Sequence record: KF620435
Source: Shigella phage pSb-1
Length of the DNA stretch: 64,000 bases
Reading direction: 5' to 3' (one strand)
Position 1 is the first letter of the stretch. The number at the start of each line of letters is the position of its first letter. A program made the translations under genes and the position numbers. The notes under the pieces were generated by a model, which searched no databases, was not told the origin of the DNA, and saw nothing but the letters and a program-made list of their open reading frames with translations. Positions 1 through 64,000 of this stretch are shown here, piece after piece.

Positions 1-1402
1 GCATAACATCATTCAGTCGAGCTATCATCCACCCTTTCTCAGAACCTTTAAAAGCATCCTTAAGAAGACGGTCTGCTACTTCACCAATGGTAGAATTGTC
101 ACGTAATGCACGAGCATAGTTAGCAGTAATAGTTCCAGTATTGTCTTCAGACTGACGTGCAGCAACTGTATTGCCTGCCATGTTTGAGACTACTTGCTGG
201 GTCTGCAATTGATCAATAGGTGAACCTACTTCTGCCTGTGCAATTAACTGACGTGCTTCACTCCAAGGCATATCCTTATAGCCACCAACACCCAAGTCAG
301 GCAATGCAGCCCAAGTCTTAGAAAGGTTACCACTCTTACGGTCATTAAAGATTGCTTCAGCTATTTTGTCCTGTACTTCAGGGGTCATTTGCTGATTACG
401 CCAATCTGAACCAAGTACTTTAGGAGCATAGTCTTCCAGGGTAGCTTTATTAATCTGGAATGCACCTACAGGGGAGTGACCTTGTGATGGATTATTAATC
501 ATAGTTTGTTGATGATTAGTAACCTCACCCAGTGTCATCTCAGTAATAGGCTTATCAGTAGCAGCAAAGGTATAGGTTGCATCATAAGGAGAACCAGAAC
601 GAGTACCAGCAGTACCTGGAGCAGAGCCAGAAGGAGACGTGGCATAAGTACCTGGGAATCTCTCGTTCACACCTCGCATAATCGCAGCACGTACACCTGG
701 GGAAGCATTCTGCATAGCAGACTCTGCAAGTGTAAGAGCATCCATAGGAGTAGAAGCACTACGGAAAATATCCGTCAGTATACCGGATGCAGCTTGTGAA
801 TCAGCATCATTGCGTTGACGTACACTAAGGTCAAAGCGATTAGTTGCCTGATTAATAGCTGCACCACCCTGTCCTTGCAGGCGACCTAACAATTCTAACT
901 GTTGGTCAGCAGGGAGCGTAGACAGTGCCTCTCGGGTTTGTCCCAATGCAGTATTAATACGGTTCTGGTCACCAGACTGATAAGCCTCAGACAGCAAACG
1001 AATAGCTGGGGATGCATTATCTAATGCGGAGTTAACATCCTTTAAGCGACCAAAGTTATAAGCATTGTAGTCATTGGTTCCTTGCTGACCTTGTTGAGTC
1101 AGAAGAGTACCTGCTCGTTCATCCAGATTCTGGAGAGTACGCTGACTTACCAATGAAGGGTCAACCCCCTGAAACAGTGCACCAGATGCCAAAGCATTAC
1201 GATACTCAGTAGGGTCTTGGTACTGCATAGCATTCATCATGACGGCATTGCCAGCCTCCTGCTTGGCAGCGTTCTGGAAATTACCCAGTGCATCACTTAA
1301 GCCGGAGGTGGCGTTACCAATCATGCTTCCAAATGTGCGAATGCTGTCACCAACTCCAGAGAAGTTAGGTGCATCAACATTACGCCATGTAATTTGAGCC
1401 AT
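1..1402 (-). CDS. virion structural/internal protein, N-terminal ~467 codons only (gene runs off the window start); possible lytic-transglycosylase-like stretch (GAFQINKATLEDY)
   Basis: ATG at 1402 (minus) with AGGAAA RBS 6 nt upstream; frame open by eye to position 1; sits in the late block. Confidence 0.4.
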   Translation of the reverse strand, partial: MAQITWRNVDAPNFSGVGDSIRTFGSMIGNATSGLSDALGNFQNAAKQEAGNAVMMNAMQYQDPTEYRNALASGALFQGVDPSLVSQRTLQNLDERAGTLLTQQGQQGTNDYNAYNFGRLKDVNSALDNASPAIRLLSEAYQSGDQNRINTALGQTREALSTLPADQQLELLGRLQGQGGAAINQATNRFDLSVRQRNDADSQAASGILTDIFRSASTPMDALTLAESAMQNASPGVRAAIMRGVNERFPGTYATSPSGSAPGTAGTRSGSPYDATYTFAATDKPITEMTLGEVTNHQQTMINNPSQGHSPVGAFQINKATLEDYAPKVLGSDWRNQQMTPEVQDKIAEAIFNDRKSGNLSKTWAALPDLGVGGYKDMPWSEARQLIAQAEVGSPIDQLQTQQVVSNMAGNTVAARQSEDNTGTITANYARALRDNSTIGEVADRLLKDAFKGSEKGWMIARLNDVM

Positions 1403-1414
1403 GATGGTTTCCTA

Positions 1415-1857
1415 TTAACGAGTTAGCTTATTAGCTGCAATGTAAGCATCAGCAGTAGACTGGTCACGGTTTTCTGCAACAGCACGACTACGAGCACGGT
1501 CTTCCAGTGCAGTGTTATAAGACTTAATCTGGTTGTTCAGGTTAGTGTTAGTAACACTCTTAGTAAAGTTCAACTGGTCTTTGGCTAACTTATTGGCTTG
1601 GAAACCACTGTAGATATTAGCTAATGAACCAAGTGCACCCAGTCCTAGTTGGAAGGTGGGTACGTTCATGCCCAACTGATTAGCTGAACCAGACAGGAAA
1701 GAAGTAGGGTAGATACCCCCAAATTCGTACCCATACCAATAGCTGCACCAGGGTTATAGTTCATAGCCGGGGTATTAAAGTTCTGATTGTTATTAGACAT
1801 CCAAGACATAGCAGCTGGCTGTGGGGTTTGGTTGCCTGTTAAGAATGACAAATCCAT
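1415..1857 (-). CDS. small virion protein, frameshifted (track fragments 1666..1878 and 1415..1675)
   Basis: ATG at 1857 with AGGAG RBS; the two fragments read as one protein if one C is restored in the C-run near 1716..1720. Confidence 0.35.
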
Positions 1858-1870
1858 GGGGATTCTCCTG

Positions 1871-2695
1871 TTAAACAAGGTCAGTATTAAGGGACATGTC
1901 AGAGTAGTTACCTATCATATCTAAAGACAGGTCAGCTATATCTGAGCCAGTCATGAGAGTACGTGATAAGAATGAATCCAGTGACTCCATTGACACGAAT
2001 TGCATTGGGTCAATTACACCCTGCCCAGCAGTACCAAACATTTCTTCATACTGCTTATTGATTGCCATCATATCAGTATTGTACTGCTGCATTACTCTCT
2101 CTGCTTTCTGAATAGTAGCAGCCGTAGATGCATTAATATACTGGCTAATACCATTACCTACCGAACTGGTAAGCTGCATGATGTTTTGGGCATTCATCAT
2201 TTCACTCGCTAAGGTAGACAGAGATGTACCAGTAGACAAAGCAGTACCAACATTCATAGCTACCATTGAAGCAATAGCAGCAATGATAAAGCCCAGCTTG
2301 TCCCCGAACAGTGACGTAGATACTTTAGTGATAATGGATACCAGAATCATTCCAGCAATGGCATTTGCTACAGCACCAACAATCACGGCAGCTAATCCAA
2401 CAAAACCCAGAGATGCACCAACTGCACCATATGCCCCAAGTATACCTGCACCACCAGCACCAGCTGTAAATACAGAGATAACTACAGCAACCACAACAAC
2501 AACAATCTTAAATGCCCCGGTCTGATACCATTTCTTCTTAACCTTCTTATATGAGTTCATCACTAAGTAGGAACAAGCAGTGGATAGCTGAGTACTTCGA
2601 ACCAGTGACATGGAACGGTAGATGTTAGTGTGCAGTGGAATAATGAATCCACTCTCCTCTGCATCACCCATTGCCCCGGCAACATCAATGTGCAC
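1871..2695 (-). CDS. Gly/Ala-rich multi-pass membrane protein (virion/ejection protein candidate); true start may be ATG at 2560
   Basis: Long hydrophobic runs (KIVVVVVAVVISVF, GILGAYGAVGASLGFVGLAAVIVGAV); track start is GTG; overlaps upstream ORF by 132 nt. Confidence 0.4.
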   Translation of the reverse strand: MHIDVAGAMGDAEESGFIIPLHTNIYRSMSLVRSTQLSTACSYLVMNSYKKVKKKWYQTGAFKIVVVVVAVVISVFTAGAGGAGILGAYGAVGASLGFVGLAAVIVGAVANAIAGMILVSIITKVSTSLFGDKLGFIIAAIASMVAMNVGTALSTGTSLSTLASEMMNAQNIMQLTSSVGNGISQYINASTAATIQKAERVMQQYNTDMMAINKQYEEMFGTAGQGVIDPMQFVSMESLDSFLSRTLMTGSDIADLSLDMIGNYSDMSLNTDLV

Positions 2696-4524
2696 TGACT
2701 TATTCTTATATACCTGTTATAGTGATTTAGACCCAGTACTCTGAGTTTACGGTAAGTGTTATTACCATCCTGCCAAAGTAACTCATACTCCTGCATTGAA
2801 TAGAATGTATATGTTACCTCAAGTTTCTTAGCAGAACCGGAGTTAGAAGCTGTCCTAATATTCTTACGGGTAAGGGTTATATCTCCTGCATACCTGGCTC
2901 GTAGTTGCCCCTGCTTAGCACCAGACCATGCTTGTCCTGAGTGAGTAGTTTCAAATACATAGTTCCAGCCAATAGTCATGTCATACTTGTACCGCTTATT
3001 ACTATGTATCCTAAACTCTCGCTTAGGTATAACAGGATATTCCGGTAGTGGTGGAGGAGTTCCAATAGTATGCCCTTCAGTCCTGTTCCACCATGCTACA
3101 TATTCATCAACTGCATCATTAGCTGCCTGATAACCTGCAATTACTGCTTCTAAAGTCGGGTAGGTTGGGTCAGGTGGAAATGCTTCAGTAGCCATCTGAA
3201 AGAAACGGTAAATGTATTCCTTAGCAGTATCTTCAGGAGAATTAAGAGATACACCGAATGTGCCATAAATGTACTGAATATCACCTATGTCATTATTCTT
3301 CTTAAGCTCTGTCACTACTTTATCAATTTTTCCACCAGTAGCTTTATAAAGAGCTTTCTTACAGTGTGGGTAGATTGGGTCATTTTCTACCCATTGTTTA
3401 TCATTCCTGATTGGAATGAATGGATAGAATCGGTTATCAGTAGCCTCGGTATCAAACAGTGAATCTAGTGCAACGTTACCAGAGTTCTGCTTATAGATAA
3501 GCATCTTAGGTGTACCAACAGCAGTCATCTCTGTATCAGTACGAGTAGTCTGGGATGAGTACTTACGAACCAGTGTCTCTGTGGTTGTAGTGATTGTATC
3601 AGTACGAGTAACACCGCCACCTATATCAACTACATTGGTAGTTACAGTAGTACTGGATTGGATCTCACCAAACTTTCTGTGGGTCATTACCCTGTCAGAT
3701 ACAACTACAGTTACATCATCAGGTTTCTCAGTGAATCCTCTACGATAAACCTTAACGTAGGAATTCCAGTTATCTACACTTGGTTCAGTGACGGTACTAT
3801 CCTCATCAGGTCTACCGTCAGAGTAAACAGAATGAGTATGTATAGTCTTAGTAAGGTTAGTTGTGTTAGCTGTTGTATCACTTGATACGGTAGTCCATAA
3901 CAAAGTGGAGGGTAAGTCATCCTCATCATCATAGACTGTAGTCGGTCCTACTACTGGTGGATTGGTAGAGGGAGATTTATAGAAAGAGTAATCAGCATAG
4001 AGATACAAAGCACCCGGTTCAAAGTTAGTAGGTGTGAATGTAATAGTAGAACCACCATCTAAAGAGGTCATAGTAATTTCATTGGTATCTTCATCAATGT
4101 CTATGTCGAATCGTTCCATGATTCGACTTGGGGCATTCTCATAAAGATACTGGTCACACCATTGTTCAAAATCAGCAAAGCCTATCTCTGCTGCCTGAAC
4201 ATAGACAGACTCTCCAGCAGGTGGTGTAATTTGGCCCTCTATAACAGTAGGGTCAATCTTAGCCAGTACACCTAATGAAGAACCAGCCATACCAACTTCC
4301 GAATCATAGTGGTTCTTACTCCAGCTGGAGAACAGTCGCATACGAATACCCGGCCCATTCAGATAACTATCAGAGATAGTGTCTGCCATAGTGAATCCTG
4401 TATTGGAAATAATGTTACCAATGACTACAGTCTTCATATAGTTAGGACGTTTGTGTATATCCCCTGCCATGTTATAGACAGAGGATGCTACGTATACTTT
4501 GGTCTTCCCACTGAATAAACCCAT
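2563..4524 (-). CDS. virion structural protein (653 aa)
   Basis: Long ORF in the late block; last ~45 residues are Cys/Trp-rich and may be out of frame. Confidence 0.45.
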   Translation of the reverse strand: MGLFSGKTKVYVASSVYNMAGDIHKRPNYMKTVVIGNIISNTGFTMADTISDSYLNGPGIRMRLFSSWSKNHYDSEVGMAGSSLGVLAKIDPTVIEGQITPPAGESVYVQAAEIGFADFEQWCDQYLYENAPSRIMERFDIDIDEDTNEITMTSLDGGSTITFTPTNFEPGALYLYADYSFYKSPSTNPPVVGPTTVYDDEDDLPSTLLWTTVSSDTTANTTNLTKTIHTHSVYSDGRPDEDSTVTEPSVDNWNSYVKVYRRGFTEKPDDVTVVVSDRVMTHRKFGEIQSSTTVTTNVVDIGGGVTRTDTITTTTETLVRKYSSQTTRTDTEMTAVGTPKMLIYKQNSGNVALDSLFDTEATDNRFYPFIPIRNDKQWVENDPIYPHCKKALYKATGGKIDKVVTELKKNNDIGDIQYIYGTFGVSLNSPEDTAKEYIYRFFQMATEAFPPDPTYPTLEAVIAGYQAANDAVDEYVAWWNRTEGHTIGTPPPLPEYPVIPKREFRIHSNKRYKYDMTIGWNYVFETTHSGQAWSGAKQGQLRARYAGDITLTRKNIRTASNSGSAKKLEVTYTFYSMQEYELLWQDGNNTYRKLRVLGLNHYNRYIRISQCTLMLPGQWVMQRRVDSLFHCTLTSTVPCHWFEVLSYPLLVPT

Positions 4525-12920: not shown

Positions 12921-13044
12921 AATATTACCGTAGTTATGTAGTTAGGAATCCCGATAGGGTTGTATCATAAGATGACTCCTAGATAATACTTAGTATGATG
13001 GAGTACATCCAGACATAGTGTCTGGTATTAACTACGAGGTAACT

Positions 13045-13671
13045 ATGTCTATTAAAGATATTTTCCAAAGTGGTAGGGATGTTGTATGCAAAATGAAGGG
13101 TGGTTTGTTGGTCGTGGGAAGTTATGGAGAACGAATAGTTTCTGCTAATAATATCTCAGAGCTTCCACCAGAACTGCTACCCATCCCACCAACAGAGTTA
13201 GAAGATACTTTCCTTCTGGACTTGTATACATGGACTGGGAACCAAGCAGTAAATGATCAGTCCTGGTTCAATTACTTTTCATTACCAGGGATAACTAAAT
13301 CACCCGGAGGTACAGCAGCCTTAACTATTGAAGAGGGTAATCTTAAGTTCCCTGTCAGAACCAGGAATACCCAAGTAATGTTCAGTGTTCGTATCTCGGG
13401 AACTATTGCAGGGGGTGCTGGTACAGCCAGGGAATGGAGAACACAAACAAGACGAATCAATGGAACTACAGTAGTAGGTTCAGACGCTAGTGTTAAAGTA
13501 CAAGGTACGGACATTGCTAACAGAGATAACGTACTAGCTACTTACACGCTTGGTTCAATGGACCCTTTCATGGTAGACGGTATTCAGTTGGGTATGCTTA
13601 ATATCTCAGGACAAGTGATCACCTTAACAGCAGTATCGGTTAGGGTAATGCAAACTGTAAACTCCATATAA
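13045..13671 (+). CDS. hypothetical protein on the opposite strand inside the late block (208 aa)
   Basis: ATG at 13045 with GAGGT RBS; own terminator at 13697..13717. Confidence 0.4.
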   Translation: MSIKDIFQSGRDVVCKMKGGLLVVGSYGERIVSANNISELPPELLPIPPTELEDTFLLDLYTWTGNQAVNDQSWFNYFSLPGITKSPGGTAALTIEEGNLKFPVRTRNTQVMFSVRISGTIAGGAGTAREWRTQTRRINGTTVVGSDASVKVQGTDIANRDNVLATYTLGSMDPFMVDGIQLGMLNISGQVITLTAVSVRVMQTVNSI

Positions 13672-13696
13672 AAAGTATTATTAATAAGTAAAAACT

Positions 13697-13717
13697 AACC
13701 CCGCCGAAGCGGGGTTT
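13697..13717. terminator. bidirectional hairpin terminator (CCCCGC-CGAA-GCGGGG + TTT)
   Basis: Perfect GC stem flanked by A-run and T-run, between converging genes. Confidence 0.6.
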
Positions 13718-13723
13718 CAAACA

Positions 13724-15267
13724 TCAATAAAGCACTTCCCATTTACCGTCTCCGGCTGAGAATAAGGTAACAAACTTACCTGCTTGTATCGTTTTTGCCG
13801 ATGATATATTTATGTTTCCACCAGGCTCTAGAATTAAAGTATTAGCGGTATCTGCTCGCAGCATAACTTTTCTCCCCCGTACATAAGCACCAGAGTTTTG
13901 TATGGTTATATTGTTTACGTCTGCCGCTCCGTTTATTTGAATTATATCTCCAGCTGAGGGTATGCTTAGGGTGGCGCCGGATGCTGACACTCGTGAGTCG
14001 TTCATTGGGTCCCATCGGGTTACGTTGTTAGCAATGATAACCCTTCTACTCTGTGTAAAAATATCATCGGTAATACCAACCGAATTGCAGTTGTTTCCGG
14101 TGACAACAACATCATAGCTATTAGGGTCAATTTGGATGGCGTACTTCTGACCGCCTCCACCACCTTTAAAGCTACCGTTAGAAACCACTATGCCTTTACT
14201 TAATCCGGTGAACGCATATCCACCAGTACCTTGTGGACCAATACTTCAGCTTGCAAATCAGCTGGCGATTTACCTTTTAGATTTCCATGAGATATGAAAC
14301 CGCTTAACGTGAACTCTTCACACGCATTAATTTCAAAGCCTAACCACCCATTAGAGTGCGATATATCACCATTTGAACTTGAACTACGGCAGTCCCCAAA
14401 ATCGAAACCAACACCAGTGTTGTTATACGACACATTGCCCGTCGACGTTATAAACGTGCCATTATAAAGCATTCCCTGGTGTGACGTTGTTGTGCCGTTG
14501 TTATAGCTTCTGTTGTTTGAAACTATTGAGTGAGACGTCTGGCAAACAATACCGTTTTGACCGTTGTTATGAGACTTGCACTCGGAGATCAATACCTGGT
14601 CAGCTACCGGTGTCGACGAGTTAGTGATGAACTGAATAGTAATTCCGTTTCCGCCGTTATCATGCGCATGAACTTTCGATATAGTGACTGGCGAGGTAGT
14701 AAACGTAGCGTTAGATAGCACAAGCCCGTCAGAATACGCGGATTGAATTTCGGTGTCCTTTATAGTTTCACCGCGAACATTTCTCAGGTAGATACCATAA
14801 CCAGAGCGAGTGCCGTCAACTAAACAGTTAGCTACCGTGTTACCACCGCCGACTGGGGTATCGCGTATTGTTATGCTGTGGCCTCCCGAAGCCTTTGATA
14901 CTACACGGTCCAGCACAACACCTGTGCGACCATTAATCATAATGTTATTGGCAGCTGAAGAACCGGACGTTCTTGTTCCATCTATAGTTACATTTACAAT
15001 CCTTACGGAGTTAGTATTGACTTGTATTAAGTCTTCAGTTGTATCACTTTTGCGAGAAATGAACCCAGGACCAAACACATCGCATGTAACACTGATGGTT
15101 GTTACTTTATATTCAATATTTGGATTTAGTTTTACAAAAAAACCATTTGTAGTCGCATAGTCTATTGCTGTCTGCAATACGTCCTGATCTGATAATGATG
15201 ACCGTCTAAAAATCTCAGGATCAACGCCTGACATAAAATAGAACCTTGGGATTATTTCACTTCGCAA
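13724..15267 (-). CDS. tailspike/tail fiber with beta-helix-like repeats, frameshifted (fragments 14200..15267 and 13724..14188)
   Basis: Repetitive Asn/Gly/Ser/Thr-rich sequence; downstream frame open from 14245 and continues the protein; one-base loss near 14225..14245. Confidence 0.5.
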
Positions 15268-15380
15268 TGAAGCATCACCAACACTAACCCACTTACCTAA
15301 CCCAGTACCCCCAGCACTTTCAGGAGTTGAACCGGAAGAAACGATTTTAGGTAACTCACCCTCCCAGCGATACTTACCTC

Positions 15381-15740
15381 CTATATGATAAGTAGTTCAT
15401 TTTTAGCATTAAGGGTAGCACCTGTATCAAATGATCCAGGTAATGTAACGTATTCTTCTCGAGATACGGCTAACTCCCCAAGGTCTACAGAACCAGCTGA
15501 ATGTACAAGTACAGCATTAGCACCAAGACTAACAGCAGTAGTACCTGGGGCAATACCAGCAGGTAGTGAATAGGATCTTTGCGTTTCTTTGTCATAAATG
15601 ACTTTATACCCACCTAAATCTACGCCAACTGAGAAGTAAACAACCTCAGACTGTTTAACACCAAACCTACGGGCAATGGCTTGTTTATTGGTAAGAATAC
15701 CAGTAGAGCCTTTACCACCTTGTGAGAACATTTCGTTCAT
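15381..15740 (-). CDS. hypothetical tail-module protein (119 aa)
   Basis: ORF in tail module. Confidence 0.3.
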
Positions 15741-15790
15741 AAGAACCTCTTTGTTTTTCTAGGAAACCCCTCCGAAGAGGGGGTTGTTTA

Positions 15791-16108
15791 TCAAGCGTAA
15801 CTTAATTCAACTACAGCACCAACGCCAACAGTACCTGTAAAAGTAATAGTAAGGTTGCTAGAGTCAGCTGCAATTGCAGTTACAACTGCTGCTGCTGCAC
15901 CACTACCTACTTGAATTTGATTATCAAGCTTACTACTTACTACAGTATTATCAGCACACATGAAAATAGCACCTATTGCTAATCCATTACCGTTGGTGGT
16001 TTTAATACGCAAGAACTCTACTAAGGTACTGCCAGTCTTGTTGAAGTTAGGGAACACTTCTTTAATGCGATACATAGGTATCTGGATAGTAGTACTGGGA
16101 CTAGCCAT
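15791..16108 (-). CDS. hypothetical tail-module protein (105 aa)
   Basis: ORF whose start overlaps the stop of the upstream tail gene. Confidence 0.3.
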   Translation of the reverse strand: MASPSTTIQIPMYRIKEVFPNFNKTGSTLVEFLRIKTTNGNGLAIGAIFMCADNTVVSSKLDNQIQVGSGAAAAVVTAIAADSSNLTITFTGTVGVGAVVELSYA

Positions 16109-18691
16109 ACCAACTTAGAATAGGGGATGAGTATGGGGAACCTGTAGCACTTGGAGTAGTAGTATAAGAGGGAGCCGATGCTCTTCCTTCCTGCAAAACA
16201 CCATCCCTGTATCTACGAATTGCCCCACCGATACCAAGTTTTACATCAAGATAATTACCAATAGTACATACTGATTGTGGAACACCTTTAGAAGAACCAT
16301 TCCAATAATTACTAATATCGATTTCTACAACATTATCCGAACCAGTGACATTAGCAAGTCGGTACTTCTGAGTCCTGAAACGACCACATAGCTTAACAAT
16401 AGCCCCGGTAGTACCCTTCACTACAGCAACATAGTTAGTATTATCAGTAGTATCATCGTAAGTACTAAGGTAGGCATCAACTACCCCACCATCAACGTTG
16501 ATGTATTCTACCGTAGCGTATTCTGCACCTAACGTACCTGTAACATTAGAATTGATAAATGTATAAGAAGCTAACGTAGCATGGTCTACAGCAGCCATAG
16601 CAAAGTTTGAGTAGTCTACGCCGTTCAAATAAAAACCAGAACCACCCGGTGAATTAGCGTAGTACCCATCAAACAGTAGACTGGTAGCGGATTGTGCATC
16701 TGCAATAGGTACTCCTTCAGCATTTGTACGTGTACCATCATAGAAGCAAGAGTGGGAAATAGTATCATTGCCACGAATGTCTTTGTGTGTTCCACGCCAT
16801 GCATTCTTACACCAGATATCATATAAACATCCACGGAAATTTATATTCTCTGTGCTGTAATTAGTAGCACTTGGGATGTAAATACCAACTGGACGGTCAC
16901 CAATGGGAGCCTCGTTACACCAAATATCTATGTTCTTAATTTGGAAGTAACGCACGGTCTCAGTGGCCATGAATACGCAGTTAATGTTAGCAGGAGCATA
17001 CCCACCAAAAACAGGTATTAAAGAAGTAATGCCTGATTTAGTGGATGTTCTTTTTGCTACACGACCCCCTGATAAATCAATTTTAAAGTGGGAACCTTAA
17101 GTAGTATGGGTGCATCAATCACAAATCTCTTACTTGAGTCTGCGGAAAAGATTCGGTTGAGGGAGTTAAACATTCTCTGGAATGCATCGGAAGAATCAGC
17201 AATACCTGTTGTGTCATCCCCGGTATAAGAGATTGCACCAAAATCTTCTACAGTAGCATTATTGGTATCTACCCGTTCCCAATACCAGTTTGAATTTACT
17301 GTCGCAATCACCCCACCATCATCGTCTGGTACTTCAGACATACCTGTAGTAGAACGAGCAATAAATTCACCACCACCAGTATCACTATTATCATAGTACC
17401 CAGACAAAAGGACACGTGCACCAGCTGAAGGTGGAACCAAAGTTCTTAGAGCAGCGAATGACTGCACACGTCCGATATTGGTAAAGCCAAGAGGAGAATT
17501 TAAACTATTTTCTAAAGTCTCCAAAGCAGACAACGCTTCACTAGGCATTGGCAATAGGTCAACTGTGATATTCCCTGGTGAGTAAGTTAACTGACCGTTG
17601 GATACAGAATTGATATAAACGTTAGTAGGTAGAGTAGGAAGACCATAAATCTTCTGCCCTACCACATCATATATGACCTTCATACCATTCAAATACTGAG
17701 TGGTATTCGTACTCAGAATAACATCATTCTCATGTACGTTAGCAGAACGAGCTACTTCCTGAACAGTACGGTCAGACATAATGAGCGTAGTGGATTCACC
17801 ACCAATCTGAATAATCAGACGGTCATTAGTAGCTAATGGCTCAGTTAATAGGATACGTTGGTTAGCAGCATCAACCGCATAAGACTTGTCTGCTAAACCT
17901 GCATAATAACGTTCGCCATTCTTATAGATAGCCGGTACAGATTCAAATGTGTAAGGAATAGCAATTACTTGCTCACCACCTGAAGCATACCCACCGTTGT
18001 ACAACCAGTTGATCTGAACCCAGTCAGATACATTAGGATTATCAGGAACTGCTGGAGTACCAGTCAGGAACAGGTGTACTTCATCACCTGGTTCTAATGG
18101 TTGAGCCAGAGTAACGGTTAGTGTAGATGCATCGTAAGTAAAACCATAGCCAACTAAGTTGGTATAGCCATCAATTACAATCATCGGTACACCAACCGTA
18201 CCAGCAGGCACTGGGATAGTGGTTTCACCACCGATAGCAGAACCATTATTATATGAGTATGGAATGTATGGAGGTGATGCTTTACCTTCGCCGTCATCTC
18301 CACCACTATCTGAATTAGAAGTGGCAACCAGAATCCAGGAACCAGTAGCGGAAGGGTCATCTGGAATTACACCTGTACGGTCACCTTCTACATACAGATA
18401 ATCTGTAACAACTCTTTTATTGGTATTGTCAAAACCATACAGTCGTACATAAGATGCACTGGTAGGTATGGCCTTCAGTTCAGTTTCTGATTGAACACCT
18501 AACACCATTCCATATTTATTTAAGAAATCATAAATGAGTTTGAGGTTACCTAGGTTGCAGTACACAGTACGAACCACATGGTAAGCATTACCAAGTAATG
18601 CATCTACCATTGGGTCATTGGAACTGTTCTGGCAGTAAGGATTGGTCCAATCCTGCTTTGCATCAAAGGGGGTATGTGCGTTCATCGCCAT
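16101..18691 (-). CDS. large tail protein (~860 aa), frameshifted (fragments 17057..18691 and 16101..16970)
   Basis: Second fragment's frame is open upstream to ~17096 and overlaps the first fragment's end; restoring one base near 17081..17088 joins them. Confidence 0.45.
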
Positions 18692-24116: not shown

Positions 24117-24342
24117 GAGATAAATAGGAGGTAGATAGATACCTCCTCATAATATTTTTGCATGTCAAAATTGTGATAGCTATGTATGGCTACAGTGGTG
24201 TGGCTGGGGCTACACCCTTACACTCAACCATCCCCCCCGGTATGTTGACGGTGTAGCCACTACCCTACCCCACCTTACACGTTACACATGCTCCGCATGT
24301 TATGGACATGTTGTCCTATCATCAACTATTGGAGCTATCATC

Positions 24343-27357: not shown

Positions 27358-27710
27358 AGCTAATCGTAGCTGGTGGGAGAGACTTCGTAAATACCCAAGT
27401 AATGATTACAGTATTAATGGATTTAGTGGAGAAGGGTAAGATTGACCCTAATCCAGAATTAGTATGTGGTATGGCTCGTGGAGCAGATATGCTTGCATAT
27501 AGCCTATGGGCTAATAACAAAATGACTATTCATAATTTCCCAGCAAACTGGGATAAATATGGAAAATCTGCTGGTTATAGACGTAATCAGGAAATGGGTG
27601 AATTTGCAGACGCTGCTGTATGCTTCTGGGATGGTAATTCCAAAGGAACCAAGCACATGATTGATATCATGAATAGGCTTAATAAACCTGTATACGTTGT
27701 GAGGTATTAG
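27354..27710 (+). CDS. SLOG/DUF2493-like Rossmann protein
   Basis: N-terminal KLIVAGGRDF and overall ~120 aa pattern typical of phage DUF2493 proteins. Confidence 0.45.
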   Translation: MKLIVAGGRDFVNTQVMITVLMDLVEKGKIDPNPELVCGMARGADMLAYSLWANNKMTIHNFPANWDKYGKSAGYRRNQEMGEFADAAVCFWDGNSKGTKHMIDIMNRLNKPVYVVRY

Positions 27711-27965
27711 ATGATTATTACATATCCTACAGGCAAGAACGTGGAATATATGGGACATACTATCCAAGTGCCTCACTGGGTTAAGTATGTAGCACTATTA
27801 CCACGACAGTATAAGAGTGCTAATACCTCACTAATAGGATTCTCTAAGAAGCCTAAGCTAACAGAAAACAATATCTGGGTATCCTCTGGGAGACAAGAAG
27901 AGATTGGTTTCTGTGATTTAAGTATTGTAGATAATAACATCTATGGGACATTGAAAAAGGTATGA
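27711..27965 (+). CDS. hypothetical protein (84 aa)
   Basis: ORF with overlapping start/stop. Confidence 0.3.
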   Translation: MIITYPTGKNVEYMGHTIQVPHWVKYVALLPRQYKSANTSLIGFSKKPKLTENNIWVSSGRQEEIGFCDLSIVDNNIYGTLKKV

Positions 27966-33743: not shown

Positions 33744-33947
33744 ATGGCAAGCATTGACTCCTTGACCGTATGTAATTCACGTCAAGCTCGTAACTTTATT
33801 ATCCGTGCCCTAAAAGCAGGCAACGTACCGTTCCTGACTTCATCACCCGGCATGGGTAAATCTGCAATCATTCGTTCTATTGCAGAAGAATTTGGCATGA
33901 AGCTGATAGACCACCGTCTATCTACTTCTGCCCCGGAAGACCTTAAC
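33744..33947 (+). CDS. MoxR-like AAA ATPase, exon 1 (Walker A)
   Basis: SSPGMGKS P-loop; frame ends at TAA 33948..33950 just after EDLN, where MoxR-type proteins continue. Confidence 0.6.
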
Positions 33948-34816
33948 TAATAGGGCTTTGTGGGGGTGACCTCACATCGAAAGCTATCTAAATGGGGAAA
34001 CTCCTACTATTACAGGGAAACCATGATACACTCTGGTTTCCCAATAGAGGACAATCCCATGCTAAATATTAATGAAAGTTGGAAAGACATTGTTGGTTAT
34101 GAAGGTTACTATGAAGTCTCTACGCATGGTCGCGTTAGAAATACCCGTACAGGTATGATAAAGAACCAATGTGTACAGACTAGCGGTAAGTATCTACAAG
34201 TCAGTTTGTGGAAAGGCAACAAAGAAAAAAGATGTTTAATACATCGCTTAGTTGCTATAGCCTTCATTCCTAACCCTGAAGACAAGCCTCAAGTAAACCA
34301 TTTAGACAAAAATGATAAGAACAACCATGTTCAAAATTTGGAATGGGTAACCATATCCGAGAATCATTTACATGCATTTGCTAATGGTAGAAAAGGCTCC
34401 AAATCCCGACTAGGTGAAAAAACTAGTAAAGCCTCTCAGTACCGATATGTGTACTGGGATACCAAAAGAGCTGTTTGGAAAGCATCTATAAAGATAGATG
34501 GCAAAACAGTAAACATTGGTAGATTCAATACTGACCTAGAGGCAGCTTTAGCCGCTGATGAGGCAATTGATTCCTGGGGCTGGGATAGAATTAAAAACTT
34601 TCAATAATTAAATGCCTAACGACTATCGAAAACACGTAGTGATACGGAAGTGAGTAGAGTAGGGTGCAAGCCAATGGCACTCGAAAAGATAGCCACCCGG
34701 ACAGGTAAAGCTGAGGGTGTTGATATAGTCTGGTCTGCGTAGTAATACGTAGCTGTATATGTCCAACTCGCATATACGGGTAGAGCCTTGCAAACTCTAC
34801 TGAACATAACGTAGTG
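33948..34816 (+). mobile_element. group I intron (IA2-like) with HNH homing endonuclease ORF; boundaries within a few nt
   Basis: Splits the ATPase gene between Walker A and Walker B; second exon has no start codon; GACTAT (34619..34624) pairs with ATAGTC in GATATAGTCTGG (~34746..34757), as in P7 of T4 td-type introns. Confidence 0.6.
34059..34607 (+). CDS. intron-encoded HNH homing endonuclease (NUMOD4 + HNH + AP2-like)
   Basis: WKDIVGYEGYYEVSTHGRVRN; HRLVAIAF...NHLDKNDKNNHVQNLEWVTISEN; C-terminal YRYVYWDTKRAVWKASIKIDGKTVNIGRF; AGAGGA RBS before ATG 34059. Confidence 0.7.
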   Translation: MLNINESWKDIVGYEGYYEVSTHGRVRNTRTGMIKNQCVQTSGKYLQVSLWKGNKEKRCLIHRLVAIAFIPNPEDKPQVNHLDKNDKNNHVQNLEWVTISENHLHAFANGRKGSKSRLGEKTSKASQYRYVYWDTKRAVWKASIKIDGKTVNIGRFNTDLEAALAADEAIDSWGWDRIKNFQ

Positions 34817-35664
34817 GTCTGCCATTCCGTAATGGTGACCGTGCAGAGTTTATTCCATTCGCTGACTTATTCCCTATTGAAGGGGATGAAGTACCAGAAG
34901 GATATAACGGGTGGCTCCTGTTCCTTGATGAGTTCCCATCCGCTCGTAAAGAAGTAATAGCTGCTGCATACAAACTAATTCTAGACCGTATGACAGGTCA
35001 GAAAAAACTTCATCCTAATGTGATGATTGTCTGTGCTGGTAACAAAGCTACTGACCGTGCCATTGTTAACCCGCTAGGCACTGCAATGCAGTCTCGTGTG
35101 GTCCATTTTGAAATGGAACTTAACTTCGACATCTTTGTTGAAGACGTAATGATTCCTCAACAATGGGATGAACGTCTGGTTGCATTCTTACATGCTAACC
35201 CTGGTTATCTGCATGACTTCGACCCGGCCCATAAGAACAAAACATTCTGTTGTCCTCGTACTTGGGACTTTGTTAATAAAGACCTCAAGAACCAGCCAGA
35301 AGGTGCTCTTCCTGATGAAGATTCCATCTACTATGCAGGTCACGTTACTGCTGGTAAGGCTACAGAATTTGTTCAGTTCACTCAGGTATATAATCGTATC
35401 ATTACGATTGAAAAGGTAGTCAAAGACCCACTGGGCTGTGCACTACCGGAAGATAACAACCTGTGCTGGGCTACCGTTAACCATCTGGCTAACAAAACTA
35501 CTGAAGAGAACTTTGTTGATGTTCTTCAGTACATTGAACGCTTTAAAACGTTCACCCATAAGATTCTGTACTTCCGTACAGTAGGCAATGCATTACCAGA
35601 TCTTCAGGCTACTCCTGAATGGCGTAAGGCTGCTGCTAATATCTCTCGTTACATTCACGGATAA
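34816..35664 (+). CDS. MoxR-like AAA ATPase, exon 2 (Walker B onward)
   Basis: In-frame continuation GLPFRNGDRAEF...GWLLFLDEF (Walker B) with no initiation codon until far downstream. Confidence 0.6.
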   Translation, partial: GLPFRNGDRAEFIPFADLFPIEGDEVPEGYNGWLLFLDEFPSARKEVIAAAYKLILDRMTGQKKLHPNVMIVCAGNKATDRAIVNPLGTAMQSRVVHFEMELNFDIFVEDVMIPQQWDERLVAFLHANPGYLHDFDPAHKNKTFCCPRTWDFVNKDLKNQPEGALPDEDSIYYAGHVTAGKATEFVQFTQVYNRIITIEKVVKDPLGCALPEDNNLCWATVNHLANKTTEENFVDVLQYIERFKTFTHKILYFRTVGNALPDLQATPEWRKAAANISRYIHG

Positions 35665-51628: not shown

Positions 51629-51892
51629 TTGAATAACTGGTATGTAGTACCAGTTAAGCACCCTCAACGGAAAGAGCAAGAGCCATATCAAGCAGAGTGT
51701 GAAGATATTATACAAGCACTAGGCATGACCTTCGATGAAGGTTGTGCCTTTAAAGCTCTGTGGCGAAATGCTGCTGCCCGTATGGGTAATGGTAAACCTG
51801 GAAACTCTTCGGTGTACGACTCAGAGAAGATTGTGCACTATGCCAATCGCATATTGAAAAAGGCTTATAATGAAGATAACCAACAATCATGA
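51629..51892 (+). CDS. hypothetical protein (87 aa)
   Basis: ORF. Confidence 0.3.
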   Translation: MNNWYVVPVKHPQRKEQEPYQAECEDIIQALGMTFDEGCAFKALWRNAAARMGNGKPGNSSVYDSEKIVHYANRILKKAYNEDNQQS

Positions 51893-59746: not shown

Positions 59747-59869
59747 TACAAAAGCGTAAGGTGGTTTTTACCGAAAGGTACTGAACTACCCGACAAAGTA
59801 GTAAGGCTTAAAAAGCCAAAACAAAACAAGCCCTCCTAGTGAGGGCTTTCTCATTTATAGGAAAATAGC

Positions 59870-60103
59870 ATGACACAAGTATCTATTACCTCTGTTGTTC
59901 GTGAGGCCATTCTCAACAATACTGTTCGTACATATTCATTTGATGAAATCGCGGAGAAACTTGGAGTAACTCGTTACGTAGCTAAGAAACTTTACTTCTC
60001 GTTCCTGTGGTTCCCTTCCGAAGAAACATTACGGAAGATTAAAGAGACTGGTAAATTTCCAAGCGAAGGGCGTAAGCCTAAGATGTGGAGAAAATGTGAC
60101 TAA
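59870..60103 (+). CDS. hypothetical protein (77 aa)
   Basis: ATG with AGGAAAA upstream; ends before the bidirectional terminator. Confidence 0.35.
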   Translation: MTQVSITSVVREAILNNTVRTYSFDEIAEKLGVTRYVAKKLYFSFLWFPSEETLRKIKETGKFPSEGRKPKMWRKCD

Positions 60104-60140
60104 ATCATTTACAGCACATCAAGTATGAGTATTAGTAGAA

Positions 60141-60164
60141 GCCCCTCTAATGAGGGGCTTTTTC
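60141..60164. terminator. bidirectional terminator between converging genes
   Basis: GCCCCTC-TAAT-GAGGGGC followed by TTTTTC. Confidence 0.55.
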
Positions 60165-60192
60165 ATTTAGTTAGTGAGGTTGAGCCACGGGT

Positions 60193-63100
60193 TCAGGGTA
60201 TGGGCACGTAAGCCTTGTCCGAAACCGAATGAGTAACCGAGGTTGCCTGTGCAGCAATACTAAAGATGTTGTCCTGAATAGGCAAACCAACGTTACCAAA
60301 CATGGTAGGAGTTGGAGCCAACATAGCCATAGCAGCATGTACTGGGTTATTACGAATCATGGACACTGCAACTTTTGCAGAACGAATCTTAAAGTTGTAG
60401 AACCACATTAAACCAACACTTTCCATATACCCACGGAATCGACCAGGTAAACGGTCATAGTTAATGAACTCTTCCGTTACACGTCCCAGTGCTTCTTCAC
60501 GAGTCTTACCTTTACGCTGGGTCAATTCATCATAGATGATTGCTTTAGCGATAAAGTCAGAGTACTCAACCGTTTTCTGGATACCCTGGAATAGAGCAGT
60601 ATCCTTAGTGAAAAGTGCATAACGACCTGCGTTACGTACAGACTTAGGCAGCTTATCAGCTAGCTTATCCATGTATTCGTGAAGTTTACCTTCAGTAATC
60701 AGGATGTCATCACGACCAATACCAGCATCTGCAATTGAAGAGAACTCACCAGCTTCTAACAGAGGCCAGATACTCAAACGCTTATGGCTATCCGTAATGG
60801 ACTGAATCTCAGCCTTAAGTTTACGAATCTGGTTCGGGTTAGTAGCTGCACGTAATTCTGCTTCTGCATCTACCTGACGAAGTCGAGATTTCAGGTACTG
60901 GTTAATCTCAGCAGTCTTCTGTGGAATGCTCTTAGCAATGTTCTTAACAGGTACACCACGAGCAACCATCTGGTAAAGGTTAGCCAAGAAGTTAACAGCA
61001 GGTACAATCACTGACTTAACTACAATCAGGGTCTTAGCTTCTTTAACTAAGTTTTGAACCAGATTCTCACCACCCATTACATACTTATAGGCACGGTTGC
61101 CAAATACACCCAACATAGCTTTCTTGAAGGTATCCAGTGTTTCTGGGGACCAACGAGAATTACCAGACCAGGCATCCCCAACAGAAGCTGCACGATAACC
61201 CAGAGCATCATTCAGCATGTCACGACGTACCCACAACTCACCTGGGCCAAACAGACTTTCTGCTTTCTGACGTGTTTCACTGTTCATCAGCTTAAGAGCA
61301 TCAGCAGTCACTGGGTCCAGTTTGGAACCAAGAAGGTTCACGTACTGGGACTTATTAGAAGCAGACATCTTAATGTCGTTCTCATACATGCTATACAGGT
61401 TCTCAATTAGCATATCGTTGAAACGCTGAGCCTTAGCCTCTTCTACCTGACGACCACGCCATACACCGATTGCACGGGCAAGATGGTTTTCACCCTCGAT
61501 GTGCTTCAGCATATTAGGGTCAATGGATTGCTCGTAAGCAACCACATTACCATTGGCATCATATACAGGCAGGAGTGGTTCATTACCACGTTCACCACGA
61601 GCCAGTGCTTTAGTGATACGGTCTACGGAAGGCTTGTCAGTGATACGACCAGCTACCATGGTTCCCATAGTAAAGCCTGTACCAAGGTCTACACCACCAG
61701 CAGTATTGCGAACGTTCTGTAAGATACCTTGGGAGAACGGAGCCTGTGCCTGTACTGGTGCAAAGTAGTAGCTACGTGCCGGTCCACGATTAGCAGAGCT
61801 ACCTTGATAAGTGCCCAGTCGTACATAGGATTTTTCAATCAAATCAGCAAACTGACTATCTTCAGCAACAATCAGGTTAACACCTTGTTTGTTCTCACCG
61901 GGAATATACCCTTTGTACTGGTTCAGGGTTGCACGGCTATCAGACTTGGCTTTAGCCATTTCATCTTTACGCTGACCAACCAGGTAAGAAGTAGCAAAGT
62001 CCATGCCTTCAATTTCTGTCTGAGCCAGTGAAGATAACATCTCACGGTCAGTCTTATTCATTGCTTCCAGTGCATACAGGGTAATGAGTTTATCCAGTTG
62101 AGCTACGTCTACAGTAGAACGTGTAGTCTTACGTTCACCCAGCAAGCGAGAAATTGCAGTAGCATTACGCAGCAGGTTATTACCGACTGTACCGTTAATC
62201 ATGTACTGAGCCAGTTGCTTAGATTTACGGCTAATCAGGGGCCAGTTACGCCCTGCTTGTTTCTGCAAATCTGCTTCCAGTTTATTAACTTCACGGTCAA
62301 CAATCTTCTGGTCAGTCAGCAAGTCACGGATTTCAGCCAGAGACATAGTATCACGCAGGACAGCTAAGTCAGTTTTACCCATGCCAGTATGCATTGCTTT
62401 CCACTCTTCATTAGTCAGTTTACGACTGAACTTAGATGCGATAGTGGTAGGCAAGTGTTCACGGAACTGTTGACGGTCAGCTTGTACCTGTGCACGAACT
62501 GCCTTAATCAAATCGTATACAGAAGCATTGCTCTTAGTACGTCCAATTATGTCATTAACCAGGTCATGGAAAGGTTGCCATACTTTACCCTGGTTCATTG
62601 CAGCCATAACACCTTCCGCTACGATTGAACCATTCTTCTCTGTAGCAATAGCAGCTATCAGTTGTGCAGCATGAGCAGCACCTTTAACCAACGGGTTTTT
62701 GGTATTAGCTGCAACTTCACGAGCACCTTCCAATGCACGGGTAGACAGTACATCAATAGAGTCCACCAGATACTGGTTAGCACGGTCAATAGCATTACCG
62801 GTAGGAGTAGCAACGGAATCATAGAAGGACTCTGCATTAAGACTGGTCTGCATGATTGTCTGAGCCAGTGCATCCATACCTTCCTGTACGTTAGTGGCTT
62901 TAGTATCACCTGCTACACGAGCATTCAGACTAGCCATTGCAGCAGTACCGATGTTAGTCAGCATTGCATCAACGGTATTACCTGATTTCTTATCTGCTTT
63001 CATAACAGGAATGTCAGCCAGTACTTTACGTACCTCTTCACTTACCATTGCCAGGCCAACAAAGGTAGGCAGTAAGGAAGAACGACCCTGTGCATCAAAC

Positions 63101-63879
63101 TCAATGTTGTTAGCACCCATGATGGTATCGAACCTCTGCTGTGCATAATAACGGTCAGCAGGGTTAGTACTATCTGGGTCAGACATGAACGCTTCAACAG
63201 TCAGGTTCTTAGTAACATGTGTGTAGTATTCCTGTGCACGAGCCAAAGCAGCTGGATTAATAGCAGCCTCGGTAGCCAGTGCAGCAACAATATTAGTGAA
63301 GAGACGTTGTTCCTGCATATTCATAGTGAAACCATGAGCCTGAACATCACGAGTTACTTTAGTTGCATTCACTACTGCATCAGAGAACTTACCTTTACGA
63401 ATTACTTGCTGTACTGGCTCTGAACCAATGTAGTCAGTAATCAGCTTATCGAAGGTCTTACCTAGCTCTTCCAGACGGGTATTGTCACCGTATGCTTTGT
63501 TATGGAACAGAGTAGTGTCTTTGGCTACAGCAGCAGTAGGAGCTTGTCCACGCATAACTACAGCAGAGTTAAACAGTAAGCCAGAGAACATATCATCTGC
63601 ATTAGCAGGAGCTTTCTTACGTCCAAATATCAGACGTTTGATTGCTTCATATACAGCCTGAACCATAGTTTTAAGTGCAGTGGTTTTCTTCTGCTTACTA
63701 ATAAGTTCACGGTTAGTTAAGCCCCAAGCCATGTACTCATTCAGTGCAGCAGCTTTAGCCATTGCTGGTTCAATGAAGCCATTAGACAAGTGACCATTAA
63801 TGGTATTCAGTGCATCAGCATATGCTTCACGTACTGCCGGAGATTCATCCTTAACATCCAGAGAACGGAACTGGTTCAT
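60193..63879 (-). CDS. giant virion protein (1228 aa); probably the C-terminal region of the virion-encapsidated RNA polymerase (N4 gp50 position)
   Basis: Last minus-strand gene, convergent with end of early block as in N4; frame is open 14 codons upstream of its ATG and overlaps the end of an upstream ORF. Confidence 0.4.
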   Translation of the reverse strand: MNQFRSLDVKDESPAVREAYADALNTINGHLSNGFIEPAMAKAAALNEYMAWGLTNRELISKQKKTTALKTMVQAVYEAIKRLIFGRKKAPANADDMFSGLLFNSAVVMRGQAPTAAVAKDTTLFHNKAYGDNTRLEELGKTFDKLITDYIGSEPVQQVIRKGKFSDAVVNATKVTRDVQAHGFTMNMQEQRLFTNIVAALATEAAINPAALARAQEYYTHVTKNLTVEAFMSDPDSTNPADRYYAQQRFDTIMGANNIEFDAQGRSSLLPTFVGLAMVSEEVRKVLADIPVMKADKKSGNTVDAMLTNIGTAAMASLNARVAGDTKATNVQEGMDALAQTIMQTSLNAESFYDSVATPTGNAIDRANQYLVDSIDVLSTRALEGAREVAANTKNPLVKGAAHAAQLIAAIATEKNGSIVAEGVMAAMNQGKVWQPFHDLVNDIIGRTKSNASVYDLIKAVRAQVQADRQQFREHLPTTIASKFSRKLTNEEWKAMHTGMGKTDLAVLRDTMSLAEIRDLLTDQKIVDREVNKLEADLQKQAGRNWPLISRKSKQLAQYMINGTVGNNLLRNATAISRLLGERKTTRSTVDVAQLDKLITLYALEAMNKTDREMLSSLAQTEIEGMDFATSYLVGQRKDEMAKAKSDSRATLNQYKGYIPGENKQGVNLIVAEDSQFADLIEKSYVRLGTYQGSSANRGPARSYYFAPVQAQAPFSQGILQNVRNTAGGVDLGTGFTMGTMVAGRITDKPSVDRITKALARGERGNEPLLPVYDANGNVVAYEQSIDPNMLKHIEGENHLARAIGVWRGRQVEEAKAQRFNDMLIENLYSMYENDIKMSASNKSQYVNLLGSKLDPVTADALKLMNSETRQKAESLFGPGELWVRRDMLNDALGYRAASVGDAWSGNSRWSPETLDTFKKAMLGVFGNRAYKYVMGGENLVQNLVKEAKTLIVVKSVIVPAVNFLANLYQMVARGVPVKNIAKSIPQKTAEINQYLKSRLRQVDAEAELRAATNPNQIRKLKAEIQSITDSHKRLSIWPLLEAGEFSSIADAGIGRDDILITEGKLHEYMDKLADKLPKSVRNAGRYALFTKDTALFQGIQKTVEYSDFIAKAIIYDELTQRKGKTREEALGRVTEEFINYDRLPGRFRGYMESVGLMWFYNFKIRSAKVAVSMIRNNPVHAAMAMLAPTPTMFGNVGLPIQDNIFSIAAQATSVTHSVSDKAYVPIP

Positions 63880-64000
63880 CAGGTCTTCAATATTCTGAAC
63901 GGCTTCATTAGGAGTGCTTCATAATGAGCCAGTACAGATTCAAAGGTAGAAGCATGTACCAATTCATGAACCAGAGTCTCTAAGGAAGGGGTAACTAAGT
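63879..64000 (-). CDS. 3' end of an upstream minus-strand ORF (partial); either separate virion gene or upstream part of vRNAP
   Basis: Frame open from window edge to TGA at 63881..63879, overlapping the ATG of the 1228-aa ORF (TGATG). Confidence 0.3.
   Translation of the reverse strand, partial: LVTPSLETLVHELVHASTFESVLAHYEALLMKPFRILKT

Follow-up and report, generated by a model that had tools for sequence, protein, structure and literature searches.

The virion RNA polymerase gene at the end of the window

The last 3.8 kb of the window (the whole 64,000-nt stretch of DNA analysed here) carry a 1228-aa ORF with an ATG start on the minus strand (60193..63879; ORF list and translation) and the end of a second minus-strand ORF that begins beyond position 64000. 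The features of the locus are listed below.

60137..60162, strand not assigned: GC-rich hairpin common to both converging transcription units, 5 nt 3′ of the true stop of the virion RNA polymerase (vRNAP) gene (terminator scan)
60167..60247, minus: true C-terminal 26 codons plus TAA stop, GNLGYSFGFGQGLRAHTLNPWLNLTN*, in the third frame; matches the end of St11Ph5 gp50 at 25/26 residues
60193..60245, minus: spurious end of the 1228-aa ORF, out of frame, …TSVTHSVSDKAYVPIP* (ends of the PHROG and PDB matches and frame comparison)
60246..60248, minus: frameshift 2, one base lost from a C run of the plus strand (CCC>CC relative to St11Ph5; CCTT in nithesis)
60249..63915, minus: main in-frame CTD block of 1222 codons, equivalent to St11Ph5 2347–3568 and roughly to N4 2251–3474
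63879..63917, minus: 12 out-of-frame codons, ALLMKPFRILKT, and the TGA that closes the upstream fragment (translation and frame comparison)
63916..63918, minus: frameshift 1, one base missing (GAA GGT ACT in relatives, GAA G-C ACT in the window), mapping to N4 G2245
63918..63998, minus: last 27 in-frame codons of the upstream vRNAP fragment, LVTPSLETLVHELVHASTFESVLAHYE, equivalent to St11Ph5 gp50 2319–2345 and N4 gp50 2218–2244; the gene goes on past the window edge
63954..63968, minus: HExxH motif (HELVH) of CTD-C1, equivalent to N4 H2228–H2232 (translation and N4 alignment)

Both ORFs matched the same protein family, PHROG 2206 ‘virion RNA polymerase’, at consecutive profile positions: the 39-aa upstream fragment at 2097–2123 (E = 7e-7) and the 1228-aa ORF at 2142–3379 of 3406 (E = 0). 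The 1228-aa ORF also matched the N4 vRNAP chains in the PDB (phmmer, E = 0, 1956 bits). A Pfam search of the CTD gave no curated domain and only sub-threshold noise. Over the visible 1,277 codons, protein identity to gp50 of the Gamaleyavirus St11Ph5 is 98.3% (tblastn). DNA identity is 94–95% to Gamaleyavirus genomes in which gp50 is intact, a single ORF of ~3,590 codons that spans the first break. No record in the phage collection reached 95% DNA identity over the vRNAP region, which makes the source a separate isolate. Searches for exact 36-nt junction sequences had no hit in IMG/VR, in JGI metagenomes or in GTDB genomes, and no exact protein match was on record for the 1228-aa ORF, a tail-fibre ORF, rIIA or portal.

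N4-type vRNAPs combine an N-terminal injection domain and a central T7-like single-subunit RNAP domain (N4 ~998–2103) in one polypeptide, and the CTD of N4 gp50 is linked to packaging of the enzyme into the capsid and is an autoinhibitor of the polymerase domain. In N4 gp50, the RNAP-CTD linker spans residues 2102–2123 and the C1 subdomain residues 2124–2375, where the HExxH motif has been described (PMC13434306). The visible coding sequence is homologous to the CTD of N4 gp50 (residues 2124–3500) and, as in N4, has the HExxH motif in C1. We identify 60167..64000 (-) by homology as the 3′ 3.8 kb of one giant vRNAP gene, the N4 gp50 homologue of a Gamaleyavirus (Schitoviridae), with a predicted product comprising part of subdomain C1, including HExxH, and the whole of C2. 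The original prediction, that the 1228-aa ORF is the C-terminal third of a frameshift-fragmented vRNAP, is upheld by the family and structure matches and by the intact relatives.

The position of the gene agrees with this assignment. The window is collinear with St11Ph5, with gp51 and gp52 at 2..1857 (-) and early/middle genes up to 60103 (+). The vRNAP gene is the last of the leftward late operon, beside the ejection-protein genes gp51/gp52, and converges on the rightward early/middle block, of which the last plus-strand ORF lies at 59870..60103. In N4, as the original prediction had stated, gp50 is likewise the last leftward late gene and converges on gp49 and the early/middle block; the layout is the same in St11Ph5 and G7C. 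Gamaleyavirus gp50 (St11Ph5 ATS92525, 3595 aa; G7C YP_004782180; nithesis XRM24130) has the same neighbouring genes and the same terminator hairpin. Convergence on the early block had been predicted to occur across a bidirectional terminator; the convergence stands, but a canonical T-tract accompanies the hairpin (60137..60162) on the plus strand only (terminator scan), whereas a terminator is annotated on both strands at the equivalent site of G7C. The remaining ~6.95 kb of the gene fall beyond position 64000, and closure of the circle to gp51, which lies at the window start, requires ~7.6 kb. From synteny, the RNAP and N-terminal injection domains would lie on that part of the gene.

Two breaks in the reading frame

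Intact gp50 genes of St11Ph5, G7C and nithesis are single ORFs, whereas the window is one base short at two positions, so that the visible 3.8 kb, as given, are not part of one uninterrupted ORF of ~3,400–3,600 codons. At the first break the window reads GAA-GCACT where relatives have GAAGGTACT; a T>C change adjoins the missing base. All 57 phage records with full coverage have one base more than the window at this site, which is intact, with a 3-base spacer, in 4/4 IMG/VR matches, and the deletion is also seen in a three-genome comparison. Upstream of the break, 27/27 residues encoded by 63918..63998 (-) are identical to St11Ph5. Downstream of it, the upstream frame, open from the window edge (63998), runs on to a TGA at 63879–63881 and overlaps the ATG of the 1228-aa ORF by 1 base (TGATG); the original prediction had already noted the overlap with an ORF that leaves the window. 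The other frame of 63879..63917 (-) encodes TPNEAVQNIEDL, identical to St11Ph5 there. The frame of the 1228-aa ORF was correctly predicted to be open upstream of its ATG; it extends over 13 sense codons, back to a TGA at 63919–63921, and not over 14. One added base anywhere in 63882..63918 fuses the two frames. Such a fusion had been foreseen with a restored base near 63905..63915, and the alignment moves the site a few bases 5′, to 63916–63918.

The second break, at 60246–60248, was absent from the original prediction. All 60 records listed have one base more than the window here. Because of the lost base, the 1228-aa ORF is out of frame over its final 18 residues; the PHROG and PDB matches end at its residues 1210–1212, and the true vRNAP stop is 60167–60169. 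When one base was added at each site, a single 1277-codon ORF resulted whose product aligned in one stretch, end to end, with residues 2218–3499 of the 3500 of N4 gp50 (YP_950528; PDB 9pnq, 9pnr, 11gp), and the phmmer score against N4 vRNAP rose from 1956 to 2056 bits. Apart from the twice-broken frame, the gene differs from N4 gp50 as its relatives do: protein identity from the RNAP domain to the C-terminus is ~70% (measured for St11Ph5 against N4), and Gamaleyavirus gp50 is ~95 residues longer. Synonymous and non-synonymous codon changes relative to St11Ph5 number 5:0 in the upstream 27 codons, 161:20 in the main block and 5:1 in the C-terminal frame, a pattern that indicates that all the vRNAP fragments are still under purifying selection. 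The ORF running off the window and the 1228-aa ORF are, as judged from these alignments, one and the same gene.

It had been proposed as an alternative that TGATG is a natural gene junction, in which case vRNAP would consist of two polypeptides in this lineage and the C-terminal 1228 aa would be made by termination-reinitiation. The 1-base stop/start overlap does permit translational coupling, and in N4 the CTD and the polymerase domain can each be made on its own, with a weak interaction between them in vitro (PMC13434306). However, every relative has this ATG as a conserved internal Met (M2263 in N4), and the 13 codons ahead of it, read in the downstream frame, still specify conserved residues of vRNAP. 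The string TGATGA is already present in the relatives, in the other frame, so that a ‘junction’ arises automatically upon loss of one base. The split, at N4 G2245, lies 13 residues past HExxH within the folded C1 subdomain and not at the 2102–2123 linker; it is seen in no other phage record, and the second frameshift in the same gene truncates a conserved C-terminus. We reject a natural junction as very improbable.

Nor do we give any real weight to programmed -1 ribosomal frameshifting or transcriptional slippage that would restore the frame in expression, which we consider extremely improbable. Passing from the upstream to the downstream frame takes a -1 shift, and the 37-nt overlap gives geometric room for such an event, but the relatives have no need of recoding and the same mechanism would be required at ~17 further sites of the window that are unrelated to this one. 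Neither a slippery heptamer (X XXY YYZ) nor a homopolymer of at least 4 bases occurs in 63875..63930 (regex scan).

One-base losses across the window

The two losses in gp50 are two of ~20 one-base dropouts spread over the window, nearly all of G or C, a pattern that the original prediction did not include. We found 22 lineage-specific isolated 1-nt indels in the window, of which 18 lie within CDSs and disrupt 15 genes: gp1, gp2, gp16 (RNAP II), gp25, gp30 (thymidylate synthase), gp37 (helicase), gp41, gp42, gp45 (SSB), gp50, gp52, gp53, gp57, gp67 and gp68 (terminase). Besides the two in gp50, sites lie near 1710, 2715, 7888, 18922, 20687, 24480, 25410, 31287, 36118, 36179, 39675, 47090, 47176, 51611, 52738 and 56106. 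The same pipeline gave 5 such indels in St11Ph5 (4 of them intergenic) and 1 in nithesis. G or C was lost in 18 of the 20 deletions (P about 2e-6), mostly out of short runs. With about one lesion for every 3 kb of CDS, two further frameshifts would be expected in the ~6.95 kb of gp50 beyond the window. A reading of the deletion contexts for a link to Dcm (CCWGG) showed the motif at only a minority of sites, and the idea was dropped.

If the deletions were true mutations in the sequenced DNA, for instance because the genome was defective or in decay or the laboratory stock had mutated, vRNAP and 14 other genes would be broken. The deletions are present in the sequence as given, and the substitution adjoining the first break could mean a complex mutational event. 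A lytic phage could nevertheless not propagate with eighteen frameshifts that hit essential genes (terminase, RNAP II, helicase, SSB and vRNAP). The flanks of the breaks carry no nonsense mutation and no excess of non-synonymous change; coding and non-coding DNA have lesions roughly as their lengths would predict (18/22 in CDSs), and hence give no sign of selection. The G/C-biased deletion spectrum resembles a technical bias. We judge real mutation to be a very unlikely explanation of the deletions; for the first break taken alone it keeps a small probability.

Because 18 equivalent lesions hit 15 genes of the window, we attribute the broken frame of gp50 to sequence error. Our preferred reading, to which we assign a probability of roughly 0.9, is that this is a known vRNAP gene, intact in the real phage and split here by base-calling or consensus dropouts. 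In the real phage, gp50 would almost certainly be one unbroken ORF of ~3,590 codons, which the single bases missing at 63916–63918 and 60246–60248 would have cut into pieces; the dropouts would have arisen in base calling or in the assembly consensus. The homology, the places where bases are missing, their restriction to this sequence and the window-wide pattern are observed; from these we infer that the one-base losses are almost certainly technical and not real mutations. Two observations were counted against an artefact: the first break corresponds to a 2-base run in the relatives with an adjacent substitution, a less typical homopolymer error than most sites, and no sequencing platform could be matched to so strong a preference for G/C among the dropouts.

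Consequences for annotation and for the CTD of vRNAP

The gene is a known one, almost certainly split here by a sequence artefact. Annotation should not list the 1228-aa ‘gene’ as a protein of its own: it starts at an internal Met, and 18 residues at its end are spurious. Since 15 genes are affected, the window needs error correction ahead of gene calling. Were the one-base loss at 63916–63918 real, vRNAP would be made and packaged as two chains, one with the NTD, the RNAP and half of C1 and the other with the remaining CTD, reinitiated at TGATG. We consider this very improbable; if true, covalent linkage of the CTD would be dispensable for encapsidation and ejection. Nothing here supports a real split, which, if it existed, would bear on how the vRNAP CTD directs packaging.

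Identity and setting of the vRNAP gene

The 1228-aa minus-strand ORF belongs to a known gene: it encodes the C-terminal domain of the Gamaleyavirus virion RNA polymerase (vRNAP; gp50 in Escherichia phage N4). Its product matched PHROG 2206 ("virion RNA polymerase") at profile positions 2142–3379 of 3406 (E=0), and the 39-aa fragment encoded just upstream matched consecutive positions of the same profile (2097–2123, E=7e-7) rather than a different virion protein. A phmmer search of PDB sequences recovered full-length N4 vRNAP (9pnq, 9pnr and 11gp; E=0), with query residues 1–1212 aligned to N4 2263–3475; no Pfam model covers the vRNAP C-terminal region. Most of the 83 phage records matched by megablast were G7C-like E. 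coli Gamaleyavirus (Schitoviridae); top identities were 94–95%, and none reached 95%. In the relatives St11Ph5 and nithesis the counterpart is annotated as a single unbroken "virion RNA polymerase" gene (3595 codons in St11Ph5, 3584 in nithesis), whereas the window copy is broken.

The original prediction had named the gene from its position, and gp50 is indeed the final late gene read leftward in N4, St11Ph5 and G7C, where it converges on the rightward early/middle block. It also placed a bidirectional terminator at this convergent end. A hairpin at 60137..60162 (AGAAGCCCCTC-TAAT-GAGGGGCTTTT) lies 5 nt past the true vRNAP stop. G7C, with terminators annotated on both strands at the corresponding site, agrees with that proposal, but here a T-tract follows on the plus strand only and the terminator scan did not call this hairpin on the minus strand, so the sequence supports the bidirectional reading only in part. 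A second GC-rich hairpin (59828..59848, AAGCCCTC-loop-GAGGGCTT), just upstream of the last plus-strand ORF (59870..60103), has flanking T-tracts on both strands and was terminator-like in both directions in the scan.

Two single-base breaks in the vRNAP frame

Features of the broken gene
60193..63879 (−): 1228-aa ORF starting with ATG, present in the ORF list and translation
63998 (window edge) to TGA 63879–63881 (−): open frame of the upstream fragment
63954..63968 (−): HELVH (HExxH, zincin-like) motif of vRNAP CTD-C1
63916–63918: break 1
about 60248: break 2, CCC>CC on the plus strand
60247..60167 (−): true vRNAP C-terminus (GNLGYSFGFGQGLRAHTLNPWLNLTN*), stop 60167–60169

The frame of the 1228-aa ORF is open 5′ of its ATG, as predicted, for 13 codons (STPNEAVQNIEDL, up to a TGA at 63919–63921) rather than 14. 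The frame running off the window overlaps it as described, its TGA sharing one base with the ATG (TGATG). One added base anywhere in 63882..63918 would fuse both frames; the predicted restoration near 63905..63915 was displaced to 63916–63918 by alignment to relatives, which read ...CAY TAY GAR GGT ACT CCT AAT... where the window reads ...CAT TAT GAA G-C ACT CCT AAT, one base being lost beside a T>C change. A 156-nt query across the site matched 57 records at coverage of at least 80%, and the matched span exceeded the query span by exactly one base in each of the records listed. A degenerate pattern allowing spacers of 1–4 bases hit four contigs in IMG/VR, each with the intact 3-base spacer.

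Alternatively, TGATG had been proposed as a natural gene junction. This reading is contradicted by the ATG, which is an internal Met kept in relatives (St11Ph5 M2359, N4 M2263), and by the position of break 1 at St11Ph5 G2346/N4 G2245. The N4 vRNAP cryo-EM study gives the RNAP-CTD linker as residues 2102–2123 and subdomain C1, bearing a conserved HExxH motif, as 2124–2375 (PMC13434306), which puts the break within a folded subdomain rather than on a domain boundary. It falls 13 residues past the HELVH motif, which is conserved with N4 H2228–H2232. The motif was already noted in that 2026 structure paper, in passages that assign it no catalytic role (PMC13434306).

Neither a slippery heptamer nor a homopolymer of four or more bases occurs in the frame overlap, so recoding at break 1 is unsupported.

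Break 2 emerged as a further one-base deletion in blastn against the whole St11Ph5 genome, and all 60 records listed across this site carry one extra base. In tblastn, St11Ph5 gp50 was split over three window frames (residues 2319–2365, 2347–3570 and 3570–3595), which leaves the 1228-aa ORF with 18 out-of-frame residues at its end. One base restored at each break yields a single 1277-codon frame whose product aligns in one stretch to N4 gp50 2218–3499 of 3500, raising the bit score against N4 vRNAP from 1956 to 2056 and bearing out the prediction of a frameshift-fragmented vRNAP. Synonymous to non-synonymous codon changes relative to St11Ph5 were 5:0, 161:20 and 5:1 in the three frames; judged from these, every vRNAP piece, including the 26 codons outside the called ORF, has evolved as coding sequence in a continuous frame.

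Genome map and larger variable loci

Relative to the standard Gamaleyavirus map, the window is circularly permuted: positions 1, 24203 and 64000 correspond to St11Ph5 48541 (inside gp51), 1 and 40940. A collapsed terminal-repeat junction lies at about 24127..24203 (St11Ph5 72330 to position 1); this and the start in gp51 are typical of a circular-looking de novo assembled contig. Closing the circle takes about 7.6 kb more, to hold the first ~2,318 codons of vRNAP, a short intergenic spacer and the gp51 end, which puts the source genome at about 71.6 kb. Exact junction searches of IMG/VR, JGI metagenomes and GTDB genomes recovered neither that genome nor a near-identical contig.

The plus-strand gp24 ATPase gene (exons 33744..33943 and 34812..35661) is split by an 868-nt insert (33944..34811). 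Within the insert lie an HNH homing-endonuclease ORF (33960..34607; Pfam matches NUMOD4, HNH_3 and AP2) and, at 34463..34752, a full-length but sub-threshold match to the Rfam group I intron model (26.8 bits, gathering 50, E=2e-4). Predicted splice sites after T and after G restore the frame exactly (…EDL|SGL…). Phage vB_EcoP_PW8 has the same insert (98.5% identity), with the ATPase annotated in two pieces, whereas St11Ph5, nithesis and G7C lack it. Other N4-like phages have been reported to contain group I introns (PMC5746245).

The tail-fibre/tailspike region (13025..17573, −) has nearly no nucleotide similarity to St11Ph5 (one 100-nt match only), and the gp66 homologue is 68% identical, confined to the N-terminal 404 residues; from sequence, the region looks like a swapped host-range module. 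At 51852..51870 (+) about 222 nt are missing, the last ~70 codons of St11Ph5 gp41, where the alignment skips from St11Ph5 27546 to 27769. In G7C, the HNH endonuclease gp41.1 occupies this junction, which therefore marks a variable insertion/deletion hotspot.

Single-base lesions across the window

With tblastn of all St11Ph5 proteins, we found 18 single-base events breaking 15 window genes. We also collected private indels, defined as isolated one-base differences in the window only, backed by at least two of three references (St11Ph5, nithesis and G7C).

Genes broken by single-base events
One event each: gp1, gp2, gp16 (RNAP II), gp30 (thymidylate synthase), gp42, gp45 (SSB), gp52, gp53, gp57, gp67, gp68 terminase
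Two events each: gp25, gp37 helicase, gp50
Start codon displaced: gp41

Private one-base indels (approximate positions)
1710, 2715, 7888, 18922, 20687, 22279, 24480, 25410, 31287, 36118, 36179, 39675, 40069, 47090, 47176, 51611, 56106, 58436, 60247, 63917
Insertions: 52738, 58232

There were 22 private indels, 18 of them inside CDSs, compared with five in St11Ph5 (four intergenic) and one in nithesis under the same pipeline. Twenty are deletions, and 18 of these lose G or C, mostly in runs of 2–5 (binomial P about 2e-6, given a G/C share of 38% among bases in runs). The bias may come from the platform, from polishing or, conceivably, from a DNA modification that disturbs base calling. In G-strand orientation, many contexts are GGGT or GGCT.

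The private lesions do not avoid coding sequence, and so many frameshifts in essential genes are not tolerable in a lytic phage; together these therefore indicate base-calling or consensus error. From these comparisons we strongly infer a technical origin for the vRNAP breaks. The fragmentation of vRNAP is almost certainly an artefact common to much of the window and not biological, and the sequence requires polishing ahead of annotation.
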